64,000 nt of DNA from an uncultured bacterium (GCA_963713855.1 OY970209.1:32001-96000), one strand, 5' to 3'; shown: positions 164 to 7,718, counted from the first letter of the stretch. The notes: a model not told the origin generated them from the letters alone. Translations and numbers: made by a program.

Positions 164-2302
164 TTAGTCAAATAGCTTCTCTAATGGCTTATATGAACGT
201 TTTTGCCTGACACTGAGGCCCAAAGCAAATTGCAAATCGCGATTAATATCATGATCATTGATAGGATTAGATAAGTTATATTCATAAAGAACTCTCGAAA
301 TAAAGCGACTATGCTTTCCTGCCATTTCAAGCACGGGAAACATGATAGCAAAATCCCAACCCATCGAATAATAAGCACCATTATATAAAATGTCTTCACG
401 GTCAATCTTCTGAAAGAGCCCTGCATAGAAAGTTCGCAAAGCGGTTGCAGTAAAATTCTCTCGCCTAAAAGAATTTTCTTCAATAACGGTATCTTCTATT
501 TCTGCACCCCATCCGTGATCTCCGCTCGGCCAATATCTAAATTGTCCATAAGTCATCCAAACTTCAGGATCTTGATAGGCAAAATTGACATAAGAAAGCA
601 CCCCATCATCTGAAAGCCAATCATCTCCATCAAGATTAACAACAATTGAACGAGGATCACAAAAATGCACCGCTTTATAGATATTAGCAAGTGCCCCCTG
701 CCTTTCTAGGTTTTTAATAACAATACAGCGGTCTGACCAGCCTTTCTGCTTAATATAATCTTCAACCAATGATCCTGTGCCATCAGGTGAAGCGTCATCA
801 ATGTACATTATTTTGATCTTGTTGGCCGGGTATTTTTGATTAAAGACAGAATCAAGATTTTTTTGATACCAGATTTTATTATTATATGAGGGTATTACAA
901 CGACTATTGGCTTATAATCTACTTTTTCCTGTGCTTCAAGGCTGCTTATATGCCTATCTAAATTACCATATAAATGATTCATGTACGGATAGGTTTTTAT
1001 AAGACGTTGTACAACCTGTGCGGCTAAAGCGCAGTCGTTACTGCGGTAACATGCGCTTGCGCCAAGTAAATTATAACGCGTGTAATCGTACGCATATTTT
1101 TCAACAAAAAGCGTATCCTGCGTATCAGCAATCTCACACGCTTTTTTTGCAAAGACGTATCCGAGTTGCCACAGGTTATTATCGATGTAATATTCGGAAA
1201 TACGCACCAAAGGTTCAGCACGCTCAGGCCGCATATCATACGCTTCCAAATAATGACTTAATGCCATATCCCAAGTATAAGCATTATTTGTTTGAGCAAG
1301 CTTTGCCGTCAATTTCCCGAGACTATACTTTGCGTAAAAGTCTTCCTGATCATAACCTTTAAGCTTTGACCGCAGTTTAAAATAATAAATAGCTTCTTCA
1401 AAGCGTTCAAGAGCCTCATACGTACGAGCCAAATAAAATAAGTTGCGTGCACTCAAAGGATCTTGGCGATAATTTTCAAGAAAGTACTCAAGATCAGTTT
1501 CCCAACGTTTTTTAGTCTTTTCTTGGCCTTGTTGGTCCGGCCGGTATTCAAAATAAACCGAATCAGGAACTTTTTGATCTACGACAGGAACAAGCGCCTC
1601 ATGACGCCCCCCCAAATAACGAGACCCTGCCTTACATCGAATTAAGCGTGATTGAAAATTTGATTTATAAGAATCGCCAATGTTTATTTGATACGAAGAG
1701 CATCCTGCGGGTTTGCCGTCGCACATTTGATCATTTGCATGAGCCTTACAAAATTCCACTAACTTATCCGCATCATGCAAGTACCATTCCGCATCAAGCA
1801 TAAGCATAAAAGCCGCATTCGGAAAATAGTGCTCCACTAACTCAATAGCTCGATTACGTCCAACGTCGAAAGGAAACCACTTAAATGGCTTTTGCGAAAA
1901 TGGCCCCACTCTGTCAGCAAATGGCTCATGTTTGATACTATAATAAGGTACTTTTTCTTCCTTCAAATATGCCGACGCCACTTGGCCTGTTTGATCAGTT
2001 TTTGGTCCTGTTACATAAACCAAAAAAGCCTCTATTCCGCCTTTAACCAAGGGAGATAGTGTTTTTTGAATAGTCTGTTCCTCATTAGCCACCATAATGA
2101 CAGCTACAACGGGTAAGTGATGAGTAATAATCGCAGGAGCAGATGTATCATTTTTTTTTAAAAAAGCAGAAAAGCTATCGTTTTCATAAGAAAAAAATTC
2201 GTCATTTGGATAACAAATCTTCTCTTCAGAAAGCGTCAAATGAATGAACAAAAAGAGAGCTAAACTAATCTTCGTAAACAAATAGCTATTCATAAAAAAC
2301 AC
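164..2302 (-). CDS. Signal-peptide, two-domain glycosyltransferase (GT-A/GT2-like + TPR + GT2)
   Basis: Hydrophobic N-terminus; first GT-A domain (VAVIMVANEE, RNRAIEL, MLDAEW, HEAL); TPR-like helices (ARNLFYLARTYE, AYDMRPERAEPL); second GT2 domain (IVVVIPSYNN, IDDASPDGT, NLDGDDWL). Confidence 0.85.
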   Translation of the reverse strand: MFFMNSYLFTKISLALFLFIHLTLSEEKICYPNDEFFSYENDSFSAFLKKNDTSAPAIITHHLPVVAVIMVANEEQTIQKTLSPLVKGGIEAFLVYVTGPKTDQTGQVASAYLKEEKVPYYSIKHEPFADRVGPFSQKPFKWFPFDVGRNRAIELVEHYFPNAAFMLMLDAEWYLHDADKLVEFCKAHANDQMCDGKPAGCSSYQINIGDSYKSNFQSRLIRCKAGSRYLGGRHEALVPVVDQKVPDSVYFEYRPDQQGQEKTKKRWETDLEYFLENYRQDPLSARNLFYLARTYEALERFEEAIYYFKLRSKLKGYDQEDFYAKYSLGKLTAKLAQTNNAYTWDMALSHYLEAYDMRPERAEPLVRISEYYIDNNLWQLGYVFAKKACEIADTQDTLFVEKYAYDYTRYNLLGASACYRSNDCALAAQVVQRLIKTYPYMNHLYGNLDRHISSLEAQEKVDYKPIVVVIPSYNNKIWYQKNLDSVFNQKYPANKIKIMYIDDASPDGTGSLVEDYIKQKGWSDRCIVIKNLERQGALANIYKAVHFCDPRSIVVNLDGDDWLSDDGVLSYVNFAYQDPEVWMTYGQFRYWPSGDHGWGAEIEDTVIEENSFRRENFTATALRTFYAGLFQKIDREDILYNGAYYSMGWDFAIMFPVLEMAGKHSRFISRVLYEYNLSNPINDHDINRDLQFALGLSVRQKRSYKPLEKLFD

Positions 2303-2388
2303 CCCTTAAACGGCTTCTCCATTATAGCTGCTGGCAAAAAAGAGTATATATTTTTTAGGGAATCTAGTGATTATTATGATAAGAAAGA

Positions 2389-2420
2389 AAATGCCCTGGA
2401 CATTACTGTCCAGGGCATTT
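2389..2420 (-). terminator. Intrinsic terminator after the collagen-like gene
   Basis: AAATGCCCTGGACA-ttac-TGTCCAGGGCATTT, a 14-bp stem followed by T-rich sequence on the minus strand. Confidence 0.75.
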
Positions 2421-2446
2421 CAAAAGCGATCGAGCTTAAACTCATT

Positions 2447-4438
<1,992 letters not shown>

Positions 4439-4625: not shown

Positions 4626-5495
4626 TTATTCTTGACCTTCTAAGGCAAATTCATGGAGCCAAGGCTCTTTATTGAAATGAGAAACATCTTCAGCAAAGCT
4701 TATTCGACCATACATCTCTCGCGTGTCAAGATATTGAGCAATTCCCTGCTTTCGTGCAACATCACTAAAAATAACGTACTCATAGCGATAGCTGTCATCA
4801 TCATAAGAAACCTTGTTAAGAACCTCATGTCTTACAAGATACGTACAATGCACTACAGGTACTTCGACTAATCCTTTGATTTCTTGTGACAAAAGCGGGA
4901 TATAAAACGGTGAATTTTCATAATACCCATTACGATCGATCGCAGCATGATAGTTTGAATAGAGAGAATTGCCGCCCATCCTAAGCAATGGCGCTACTAT
5001 CGGTAAATTGGATTCAACAAGCGCTGTAATAGTGTTAGGCTGAATAAAATTGTCGCAATCAGACACAAAATAATGGGACCCATGTTCAAATGCCCAAGTC
5101 ACCGACTTTTGTCGAATGCGACCTAAAACTTTAAAACGTTCACTATTCCACTCGTGTTGGCCGTATCGTTGAACTGGTGTTTCGACATCCGTATCATCAA
5201 AAAAAACTTCTGCATAATCTTCAGCCACCTTAGCAATCCACTCGCGAAGAACTTGAGCGGTGGTATCATTATTATTGTTAGTCCGTATATAAAGGTAGGT
5301 CTGTTTTTTAGGCCAGGCCTGATTTTGAATACACGAAAGATATAGTGGCAATGTATGAGCCTTATCTTTAGCAAGGATAGCAATCGTAACAAAATCATTT
5401 TTGAATAACTGCTCTGGAAAAACGTCTGCGTTACAGTAACTAATGGCCACAAATACTGTGAACATAAAAATAGAAAAACATCCTTTAAACATCAC
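4626..5495 (-). CDS. Signal-peptide GT-A glycosyltransferase-like protein resembling the COLGALT1 N-terminal / PLOD accessory domain
   Basis: VTIAILAKDKAHTLP, NDTTAQVLREW, HEWNSERF..RQ, DCDNFI (DxD), IVAPLL, YSNY..NGYY, VPVVHCTYLV. Confidence 0.8.
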   Translation of the reverse strand: MMFKGCFSIFMFTVFVAISYCNADVFPEQLFKNDFVTIAILAKDKAHTLPLYLSCIQNQAWPKKQTYLYIRTNNNNDTTAQVLREWIAKVAEDYAEVFFDDTDVETPVQRYGQHEWNSERFKVLGRIRQKSVTWAFEHGSHYFVSDCDNFIQPNTITALVESNLPIVAPLLRMGGNSLYSNYHAAIDRNGYYENSPFYIPLLSQEIKGLVEVPVVHCTYLVRHEVLNKVSYDDDSYRYEYVIFSDVARKQGIAQYLDTREMYGRISFAEDVSHFNKEPWLHEFALEGQE

Positions 5496-5741: not shown

Positions 5742-6245
5742 GTGAAGATTTCCTTACCACTGCTTCATACATTTGCTTTATTAATGAGCGTCAACTCAAT
5801 TGCAAACGGCGCAGATATCAATAATCATGAGTTGGATGATATATCGCTATCCTCTGATTCACCATCCAATTGTAAGCCTGGAGTGGAGCTTATTATGGCT
5901 TCACCAAATCCGATCTGCTTTGGCACAAGAACCTCTGTGGAGCTTAAAGCGTTCTTAACTGGCACACCTCCATTTAGAGTAAAGTGGTCGAATGGATTTA
6001 CGGAAGAAGTTGAATCTGTTTCGACTCAAACAGTTAAAGTTTGTGGAACAAAGATTTTTACTGTGTCGGTCGAGGATGCATCAGGATGTCAATCTGCAGC
6101 AGAAATTACCGTCTTTGAAGCAAAAGATAGTGGGCGAGAGAGCGAGAACATTGAAGCCATGCGAGAAAAATATTGCACAAGATGCCACTGTCAAATACAC
6201 AGCTCAGACACTGACAGCGACACTTCAGATACCTTTGATAGCTAA
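5742..6245 (+). CDS. Secreted hypothetical protein with an Ig/PKD-like segment
   Basis: AAGGAG RBS and GTG start; signal peptide; GTPPFRVKWSNG..FTVSVEDASGCQS is a beta-sandwich-like motif. Confidence 0.7.
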   Translation: MKISLPLLHTFALLMSVNSIANGADINNHELDDISLSSDSPSNCKPGVELIMASPNPICFGTRTSVELKAFLTGTPPFRVKWSNGFTEEVESVSTQTVKVCGTKIFTVSVEDASGCQSAAEITVFEAKDSGRESENIEAMREKYCTRCHCQIHSSDTDSDTSDTFDS

Positions 6246-6263: not shown

Positions 6264-7718
6264 CTAAAATGCTAAACCGCATTTGCCCCAAACTGACCAC
6301 TGATTGAGAAGATTTCTGCTACCAAATTCGTAAGAAGAACCAAAGCCCAATAATAGTGAGTAACATTCTTGATCAAAAGTATAGCCTACTGCACCATATA
6401 TACGATTAGCCAGTACATTGGGTTGTTCTGCAGAATGTCTATTTAAAGCATTTCTATCAATTTTTGTAAACTTCTCATCATCCTTTGTGGCGCGTGAACC
6501 GGTAACTCCCTGATTAATTTTCGCACTACTTGAGCTTGTAACAGGTAATGCGCAAAGATTTAATGACTGTATACCAAGTCTCTCATTTTCAAATGCTATA
6601 TTTTCAATTCTTTCAGCTTGTCGCCACCAAAGATCGTAACCGAGCTCGAAATTGAAATTGCAGCGGCGATAATGAGCTGCTAACCAAAAATCAATTCGAC
6701 TCTGAGGCTTTACCCTCGCAGGTACGGTAAAGAAGTTGATACCAGGTTTTGAATTTACCCTTTCACAAGTATCAACAACTAAAAGATATCGTGACCAGTC
6801 ACCATTCTTAGTTAAGTCGAAAGGTCGAATTTCCGTTCCGGGAAATACATAGAGATATTTAAAATCGGCCATAATATTAAACTCTTTATTATCACAAGCG
6901 TATAAAGACTGGTCACCATTAAAACCAAATCCAACGCTGCCGTGTCTTGAACCAACCAATGGCTCGAATAAAGCACGACCCGTTCTACGAGACCCAGTTG
7001 GCGCGGTTCCTACCAAATAAGCGGTTGCGTGCTGGCAAGGTGTCTTATAAAAGTCATAACCTAGTTTAAACTGCACATCATCGACACCAGTTCTTTTTTG
7101 CTCATGGCAAGGTAATCTACCAGCCTCCCATCTAGGATTATTAAAAGCGTCACAGGCATTTTCAAATCCTGGTAATATGCCCCGAGTGTTTCTATCGTTT
7201 TCCTTAACATGCAGGTTGTGCTTAACACGCACAATAGCTGTGTTAACTCCAAGCCACCAACGATAAGACATATTAAAATACCAAGTAAGAACACCACCTG
7301 TAACTGTTCGCTCTGGGCGAAGGCACACTTTTGATTGGTAAAGTTCACCCTTTTTTGCAATAAGATTAAACCATAAAGGATCGATATCGCCGCCTCCATT
7401 TTCTCGCAATGTCATACAGTGTTTGTTGTGTGGGAGAAAATAACGGGCTAATTTCTCTCCATGTGCTGAGTGTATAAAAAGAGGCGTAAACGAAAAATAA
7501 GCATGCATATCCGGGATGCTATGATACCGATGATAATTAGTTAATGCTAATTCATACATCGAATCGGTACTTAGTAACCGGGGAACAAAAAAGGTTCGAC
7601 TGTGGTTAGCAAAGCTTGTACCACAGCAGAACTGAATGAACAGACATATTAGTAGTTTTTGTATAGCTTTCATTGAATCTCTTGCCATTTTTAAACCTGG
7701 GGGGAATCGTAGCAACAA
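6264..7718 (-). CDS. Cys-rich putative outer-membrane beta-barrel family protein (paralog 1)
   Basis: Signal peptide; TGVDDVQFKLGYDF, APTG, FEPLVGSRHGSVGFG; C-terminal WGKCGLAF; true start may lie slightly downstream. Confidence 0.7.
   Translation of the reverse strand: MLLRFPPGLKMARDSMKAIQKLLICLFIQFCCGTSFANHSRTFFVPRLLSTDSMYELALTNYHRYHSIPDMHAYFSFTPLFIHSAHGEKLARYFLPHNKHCMTLRENGGGDIDPLWFNLIAKKGELYQSKVCLRPERTVTGGVLTWYFNMSYRWWLGVNTAIVRVKHNLHVKENDRNTRGILPGFENACDAFNNPRWEAGRLPCHEQKRTGVDDVQFKLGYDFYKTPCQHATAYLVGTAPTGSRRTGRALFEPLVGSRHGSVGFGFNGDQSLYACDNKEFNIMADFKYLYVFPGTEIRPFDLTKNGDWSRYLLVVDTCERVNSKPGINFFTVPARVKPQSRIDFWLAAHYRRCNFNFELGYDLWWRQAERIENIAFENERLGIQSLNLCALPVTSSSSAKINQGVTGSRATKDDEKFTKIDRNALNRHSAEQPNVLANRIYGAVGYTFDQECYSLLLGFGSSYEFGSRNLLNQWSVWGKCGLAF

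Follow-up and report, generated by a model that had tools for sequence, protein, structure and literature searches.

The window analysed here, a 64,000-nt stretch of DNA lying within a single 1.52-Mb contig (91% complete), carries a gene for a small stand-alone glycosyltransferase-like protein that is not a COLGALT, but a member of a wider, unnamed family to which COLGALT GT1 and PLOD AC also belong. The gene is one of three consecutive genes on the minus strand (5495-4626, 4411-2447 and 2302-164), the others encoding a collagen-like protein and a 712-aa protein, with gaps of approximately 290 and 145 bp between them. On balance, we lean toward reading the focal protein as an active, exported, UDP-sugar-dependent transferase that would help to build O-glycans on the Thr and Ser residues of the adjacent (GNT/GNS)n fibre. 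The relevant features, with positions counted from the first letter of the window, are as follows.

4626..5495, minus strand: focal GT-A glycosyltransferase gene, a stand-alone ORF of 289 aa homologous to COLGALT1 GT1, LH3 AC and the R699 C-terminal domain
5427..5495, minus strand: putative N-terminal hydrophobic leader (residues 1-23), signal-peptide-like in sequence, with CNA|D after the hydrophobic stretch
5052..5060, minus strand: DxD motif D146-C-D148, aligned by HMMER with COLGALT1 D166-A-D168
2447..4411, minus strand: collagen-like protein gene, 654 aa as listed (PF01391, E 2.8e-54)
3026..4150, minus strand: collagenous region, residues 88-462, with 123 G-X-Y triplets by count
2447..3025, minus strand: C-terminal globular domain of the collagen-like protein, 192 aa, with one homologue (P0373)
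2388..2421, minus strand: terminator-like hairpin, a 15-bp stem and then a T-rich tail, directly 3′ of the collagen-like gene (consensus match only)
923..2302, minus strand: N-terminal part of the 712-aa neighbour, with leader, GT-A domain and TPR of the SunS/GmaR type (profile A2 and TPR Pfam matches)
164..919, minus strand: C-terminal GT2 domain of the 712-aa neighbour (PF00535, E 2.1e-19; PDB 6yv7, E 1.1e-8)

The focal ORF matched no Pfam family at E ≤ 0.01, and the model for PF00535 (Glycos_transf_2, placed in CAZy GT2 by the NCBI annotation of homologues) did not match the protein. When all PDB chains were searched with phmmer, residues 27-265 aligned with the COLGALT1 chains 9u7j, 9evj, 9u7h and 8zgc (E 1.7e-30 to 2.2e-30), followed by the accessory domain of LH3/PLOD3 (E 3.1e-8) and by R699 of mimivirus (E 1.2e-4), with no other chain below E 0.2. 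A profile of 49 aligned family members (A1) recovered COLGALT1 at 1.4e-47, LH3 at 2.9e-19 and R699 at 1.6e-12, and besides these no PDB chain at E ≤ 1. The sequence and an AlphaFold2 model of high confidence (mean pLDDT 93.0, pTM 0.87) both describe a single domain, and the best structural matches of the model by Foldseek and VIA-align were COLGALT1, LH3 and R699, not generic GT2 enzymes. The earlier note on this DNA, made from the sequence alone, had proposed a stand-alone homolog of the COLGALT1 N-terminal domain, and had named a best structural match to generic bacterial GT2 enzymes as the outcome that would speak against it; the Foldseek comparison with COLGALT and PLOD that it suggested gave the opposite ranking. 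All six motif pairs that it listed are present in the HMMER alignment to the COLGALT1 chains and in the same order (focal/COLGALT1: NDTTAQVLREW/MDNTSTVLREW, HEWNSERF..RQ/KHWSDSRY..RQ, SDCDNFI/VDADNLI, IVAPLL/VVAPML, YSNY..NGYY/YSNF..QGYY and VPVVHCTYLV/VPMVHSTFLI). By PDB searches and by fold, the homology is real and specific, and the domain does stand alone as a single-domain protein.

The residues of COLGALT1 GT1 that lie around UDP-Gal and Ca2+ are given in an excerpt of PMC12003778 as L59, R61, D91, Y126, W135, R139, V143, R147, D166, D168 and D265. Most are identical or similar in the focal protein (L59/L41, R61/K43, W135/W116, R139/R120, V143/L124, R147/R128, D166/D146 and D168/D148); of the other aligned contacts, D91 corresponds to N73, Y126 to P107, and D264/D265 to E239/Y240. 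Conservation reaches at least 90% among the 49 sequences of A1 for L41, N73, W116, R120, L124, R128, D146, D148, H216 and E239, a list from which K43 is absent. D233, R237 and D257 are near-invariant in the family too, R237 and D257 being replaced in COLGALT1 by S and C. This pattern of conservation suggests that a metal and a UDP-sugar can both be bound by the focal protein, which we consider probably catalytic, with E239 as the candidate base. Two points count against activity: residue 240 is a Tyr, at a position where many GT2 enzymes have an acidic base, and the related domains that have been characterised, three in all (COLGALT1 GT1, LH3 AC and the C-terminal part of R699), are accessory or non-catalytic. 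According to the same excerpt, human COLGALT1 GT1 is non-catalytic and binds Ca2+ and UDP-Gal structurally only, and the AC domain of LH3 binds neither metal nor co-substrate (PMC12003778). Our literature search on the bacterial family found no assayed or characterised member. With genes for GalE (337 bits) and for three NTP-transferases, the bacterium is probably able to produce its own UDP-hexoses.

The collagen-like protein probably starts at M27 (position 4333), and from there its N-terminus is signal-like. The adjoining collagen gene and the scarcity of lysine in its repeat, both reported previously, were confirmed by the PF01391 match and by count: the collagenous region comprises 72 GNT and 25 GNS triplets, and its only Lys residues are K90 and K93. 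It is the sole uninterrupted run of at least 8 G-X-Y triplets in its own genome, besides one Gly/Arg-rich run. GT25 (PF01755) had no match anywhere in the 1.52-Mb genome (91% complete), nor did PF13640, the 2OG-oxygenase family searched. With two Lys in 123 triplets and neither of these families found in the genome, the acceptor cannot be hydroxylysine, which bears out the earlier claim that it must differ from the animal one. The C-terminal globular domain had no Pfam match, and its AlphaFold2 model (pLDDT 43.5) is unusable for fold assignment; language-model comparison pointed to BclA_C and C1q clusters (0.92-0.94) as leads only. The homologue search for this domain returned a single match, P0373 (730 aa; alignment A3), a long non-collagen protein that is related through its C-terminus and whose repeats resemble a phage tail fibre by eye, and this hints that the globular head could be a fibre-tip module shared with viruses. 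The strong hairpin downstream of the gene suggests that the fibre gene may be transcribed at a level other than that of the downstream enzyme gene; a promoter scan found 16 candidates versus a shuffle mean of 16.4, no better than the shuffles.

Comparison of the 712-aa neighbour with enzymes of solved structure points to protein glycosylation. A profile of eight homologues of its first 460 residues (A2) matched SunS in the PDB over the catalytic and following helical part (E 1.8e-14), as well as GmaR (E 7.5e-9), while the TPR Pfam matches were weak. Both SunS, the sublancin S-glycosyltransferase, and GmaR, the Listeria flagellin O-GlcNAc transferase, glycosylate peptides or proteins. The window's genome has one collagen-like gene and one GT2-TPR gene, and the former is flanked by the latter and the focal gene. 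Across a sample of 201 genomes (120 genera) from the window's phylum, collagen-like genes occur in 57 of the 69 genomes with GT2-TPR versus 7 of the 132 without it. The tie is a close one, seen in the window, G006, G039, G058, G113, G139 and others: for five genomes, every GT2-TPR gene (9 of 9) has a PF01391 match no more than 4.3 kb away, and many further adjacent pairs of GT2-TPR and collagen-like genes can be read from the positions in the phylum scan. The GT2-TPR family may be the primary collagen-like-protein glycosyltransferase of the phylum.

The focal family itself was detected in 29 of the 201 genomes (14 of 120 genera), at 39-69% identity to the window protein and mostly at 54-69%. 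Cross-tabulated by hand, the three phylum scans (focal family, PF01391 and GT2-TPR) place GT2-TPR in 29 of 29 genomes with the focal family versus 40 of 172 without it, and collagen-like genes in 27 of 29 (all except G052 and G034) versus 37 of 172. The pattern is nested, from collagen-like gene to GT2-TPR to focal family; together with the fused GT2-TPR-X form found elsewhere (X being the focal domain), it is consistent with one enzyme that initiates and an accessory one that extends. These counts overstate independence, as genomes of one phylum are kin and a single genus, g21, supplies three of the adjacent cases. Inspection of 31 further loci of the phylum with 6-kb flanks found a run of at least 8 G-X-Y triplets near the focal gene in six, with Thr the commonest residue at Y in all six and with varying orientations. 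The runs lie within 1.3 kb in five loci (G006, G113 and G139, all of genus g21, plus G039 and G058), and at 4.3 kb in the sixth (G145). Every PF01391 match of G039 and G058 is at the focal locus; adjacency in g21 is weaker evidence because genomes of that genus are rich in collagen-like genes. Judged by family and genus codes, adjacency of focal and collagen-like genes arose or persisted in no fewer than four lineages. The remaining 25 of the 31 loci had no collagen-like run within 6 kb, two Chlamydiae loci had no collagen-like gene nearby, and G-X-Y runs lay within 4 kb at 5 of 79 loci on viral contigs. GT2-TPR homologues were found within approximately 3 kb of the focal gene at 6 of the 31 loci. 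Searching the same loci by tblastn with the N- and C-terminal parts of the collagen-like protein and with the other neighbours p167 and p213 revealed no conserved partner, and p484 matched only in L066. Literature searches on Dependentiae with collagen (which returned microbiome surveys only) or with glycosyltransferase found nothing relevant.

Some of these loci contain additional genes of interest in their own right. In three genomes of genus g21, a 149-aa gene whose product has a type IV pilin-like N-terminus (..GFSLIELMVVVAIIAFLA..) is placed between the focal homologue and the collagen-like gene (L040 6847-7296, L043 6798-7247 and L052 5528-5977). In L044, L048 and L050 (genomes G121, G135 and G156), many small leader-bearing genes cluster around the focal gene, the leader often being followed directly by a GT-A-like first strand such as ..VVVIMVKDE.., so that each cluster looks like a set of exported or anchored transferases. 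The window itself has, beyond the focal gene, a 167-aa Cys-rich leader-bearing protein at 5742-6245 (plus strand) and a 484-aa protein with no Pfam family at 6264-7718 (minus strand). This pair is duplicated at G000:C1:1373587-1375424 (49% and 62% identity). For the 484-aa protein, six or more additional paralogous matches of lower strength were found, and three of these fall within the window; its family may represent outer-membrane proteins.

Four paralogues of the focal family are present in the window's own genome. Three of them (290, 275 and 496 aa) form a tandem array at G000:C1:1457688-1460892 (L008 9680-12911) with no collagen-like gene nearby; the 496-aa copy is fused to a SAM-methyltransferase domain, and two of the three have diverged in their N-terminal nucleotide-binding motifs.

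The family as a whole is large. In protein databases, 1178 proteins of 158-506 aa match the focal protein at E ≤ 1e-3, the best 120 at 57-70% identity, with Parachlamydiaceae, Protochlamydia and a soil Dependentiae MAG among the source names. A library of 1.84 billion representative proteins yielded 855 clusters at E ≤ 1e-3, 330 of them at E ≤ 1e-30, and lengths among the best 150 clusters range from 241 to 1882 aa. We scanned 54 of those 150 for domains, choosing the longer ones, and found PF00535 in 24, GT25 (PF01755) in 9 and a methyltransferase domain in 14, along with TPR, sulfotransferase, GT4, GT11, GT32 and GDSL domains. Fused forms carry names such as Bradyrhizobium (1882 aa), Paenibacillus, Rhodoblastus, Aestuariivirga and Hyphomicrobiales; in free-living bacteria, the domain is usually fused as GT2-TPR-X and sometimes as X-GT25. 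The family also occurs in intracellular bacteria and in giant-virus contigs, where tblastn found 211 relatives at 40-54% identity. The cultured-phage collection gave no tblastn match at E ≤ 1e-10, its one distant hit being an archaeal-virus glycosyltransferase at E 3e-7. One metagenomic protein, P0123, is colinear with COLGALT1, its residues 867-1116 aligning with GT1 (13-268, E 3.9e-31) and 1121-1251 with GT25 (299-432, E 8.5e-8); the two-domain order of COLGALT thus occurs outside animals.

These numbers bear on whether the gene is ancestral or was acquired from a eukaryote or giant virus, as the earlier note had framed it. That framing implied a singular find and is not supported in this form: the protein is one of more than 1,000 similar ones, in a family spread over free-living bacteria and giant-virus contigs. 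A FastTree phylogeny was built from 297 domain rows, left from 498 after dropping 201 rows at least 72% identical to a kept row; it is unrooted, has no animal COLGALT or PLOD row, and its support values are weak evidence. Besides 59 of the 71 single-domain database proteins, the group holding the window protein (SH-like support 95) takes in 46 of the 155 longer ones (354-966 aa), all but one of the 29 same-phylum rows, the two rows from Chlamydiae MAGs and only 1 of the 40 viral rows. On the opposite side of the tree are Paenibacillus, Rhodoblastus, Hyphomicrobiales, P0123 and the other 39 viral rows. The phylogeny that had been suggested as a check, in this form with bacterial and viral rows, gives no sign of a recent giant-virus origin, and a recent transfer of the window copy from a giant virus or a eukaryote is not supported by the sequences compared.

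The predicted location of the protein depends on its N-terminus. The focal leader consists of a short basic stretch, approximately 15 hydrophobic residues and CNA|D, and residues 3-21 form a helix in the AlphaFold2 model. By database gene calls, a hydrophobic leader precedes strand 1 in 108 of 128 single-domain homologues, compared with 24 of 154 multi-domain relatives that carry the domain internally or at the C-terminus. Leaders are likewise found on all four paralogues, on GT2-TPR proteins and further GT2 paralogues, and on the collagen-like protein when read from M27. A crude hydrophobic-leader test on raw ORFs, read from the first possible start, was positive for 507 of 905 in the window's genome; as such a test is unspecific in this AT-rich genome, the case for a leader rests on the database gene calls, the n-h-c layout and the model helix, from which we infer export or anchoring of the focal protein. 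The leaders, if real, would mean that enzymes and substrate are exported together. Counted against an exported enzyme is that its leader would put it outside the cytoplasm, where bacteria are not known to have nucleotide sugars at their disposal. In Babela massiliensis, a cultured bacterium taken as a member of the window's phylum, 79 of 126 ankyrin proteins have signal peptides, and secretion of these proteins into the amoeba is argued for (excerpt of PMC4378268), so that an enzyme working outside the bacterial cytoplasm on UDP-sugars of the host is conceivable.

In the mechanism we favor, the focal gene would encode a metal- and UDP-sugar-dependent GT-A transferase with an N-terminal export or anchor leader, probably a still-catalytic member of a family that is ancestral to, or shares an ancestor with, COLGALT GT1 and PLOD/LH3 AC. 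It would act with the collagen-like gene and the 712-aa gene as a three-gene module, in which the 712-aa enzyme would recognise the (GNT/GNS)n protein and place the first sugar on Thr or Ser, after which the O-glycan would be extended by the focal enzyme together with the additional GT2 domain that the 712-aa protein carries. Counted against a module are the terminator-like hairpin and the gaps between the genes, and against the link to the fibre the 25 of 31 loci, the two Chlamydiae loci and the three tandem paralogues that have no collagen-like gene nearby. Those same 25 loci and paralogues, one of them methyltransferase-fused, would be expected of a general glycan-building transferase for lipopolysaccharide, capsule or another surface polymer, to which collagen adjacency is incidental. 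Such a role would also suit the L001 locus, which adjoins a probable polysaccharide-export membrane protein (by reading of its sequence only), and the free-living relatives, which their sources label cell-wall or LPS glycosyltransferases. We nevertheless consider it unlikely, given that four or more family-level lineages show the adjacency, in differing orientations, that three genomes (the window's own, G039 and G058) have the adjacent locus as their only collagen locus, and that the focal family is nested within GT2-TPR-positive genomes without exception (29 of 29).

Alternatively, the protein could, like COLGALT1 GT1, be a non-catalytic UDP-sugar-binding scaffold, one that would stabilise or position the 712-aa enzyme on its collagen-like substrate. 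The structural-only ligand binding of COLGALT1 GT1 and the empty AC domain of LH3, as described in the excerpt of PMC12003778, are precedents for this, and the position of COLGALT1 D265 is Tyr in the focal protein. A scaffold seems decidedly unlikely to us for a protein that is encoded as a separate gene, often distant from any partner, and kept at 54-69% identity across the phylum, with its DxD, His216 and uridine/ribose contacts conserved and D233, R237, E239 and D257 near-invariant, and whose domain is one among several transferase modules in multi-domain relatives. Its leader could instead mark a secreted effector that glycosylates proteins of an amoeba or protist host with host UDP-sugars, a role compatible with close Chlamydiae homologues that sit among housekeeping genes with no collagen nearby, and with the signal-bearing ankyrin proteins thought to be secreted into amoeba by Babela massiliensis, taken as a member of the same phylum (excerpt of PMC4378268). 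This reading appears improbable: similar leaders are present on both the collagen-like protein and the GT2-TPR enzyme, whose genes accompany the focal one across genomes, which argues for a bacterial substrate exported alongside the enzymes.

Glycosylation of collagen-like fibres is known, and this enzyme family has been known so far only as a dead domain in animals. BLAST searches with COLGALT1 GT1 had found it in vertebrates, invertebrates and giant viruses, with bacteria appearing only with GT2 (PMC12003778, 2025, in excerpt), and GT1 and the PLOD AC domain are treated there as puzzling non-functional modules; the excerpt makes no mention of a bacterial family of GT1-like domains. Literature searches combining COLGALT1 with bacterial, phylogenetic or giant-virus context returned no matching COLGALT1 paper. 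A large bacterial and viral family of the GT1 domain, probably active and repeatedly found beside Thr-rich collagen-like genes, offers a testable origin for the animal pseudo-domains, and the focal protein a tractable small enzyme for learning the ancestral activity. The locus is also a candidate surface-fibre glycosylation system for a poorly known phylum of protist parasites. More tentatively, in a picture that may well prove wrong, collagen-like fibres and this GT-A family would already have been paired in bacteria and their viruses, and animals would have taken the toolkit over on switching to hydroxylysine, leaving COLGALT GT1 and PLOD AC as relics; the parasites' version, with leaders on two enzymes (three GT domains) and on their substrate, would glycosylate outside the cytoplasm with host UDP-sugars. 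If true, such extracytoplasmic glycosylation would be unprecedented for bacterial Leloir-type transferases.

Among known systems, the N-terminal GT1-type GT-A domain of COLGALT1/GLT25D1 (PDB 9evj, 9evk, 8zgc and 9u7h-j) is the point of likeness to the focal protein. The bacterial protein differs in standing alone, with no catalytic GT25 domain either attached to it or matched elsewhere in its genome, in accompanying a collagen-like protein with Thr or Ser rather than Lys at Y, and in probably being active, whereas human GT1 is described as non-catalytic (PMC12003778, in excerpt). The AC domain of LH3/PLOD3 and the C-terminal domain of mimivirus R699 are internal parts of multi-domain enzymes, unlike the stand-alone focal protein. 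Far more distant are Mnn9/Anp1 (GT62) and the bacterial GT2 enzymes RmlT, TarP, TarS and SpsA, none of which reached E ≤ 1 in the PDB sequence and profile searches. The 712-aa neighbour is like SunS and GmaR in having a GT2 domain and then a TPR or helical domain, but adds a leader and a second GT2 domain, with the collagen-like protein as its presumed substrate. By function and gene layout, the nearest worked-out system is SgtA-BclA3, a functional analogue: SgtA, encoded beside bclA3 in Clostridioides difficile, adds beta-O-GlcNAc to Thr of GPT collagen repeats in vitro (PMC7157674, in excerpt). In both cases a GT-A gene adjoins the gene for a (G-X-Thr)n collagen-like protein; here, glycosyltransferase genes lie on both sides of it. 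The present system differs in its bearer, which is no spore former but an intracellular diderm parasite, and in having two enzymes with three GT domains, all leader-bearing.
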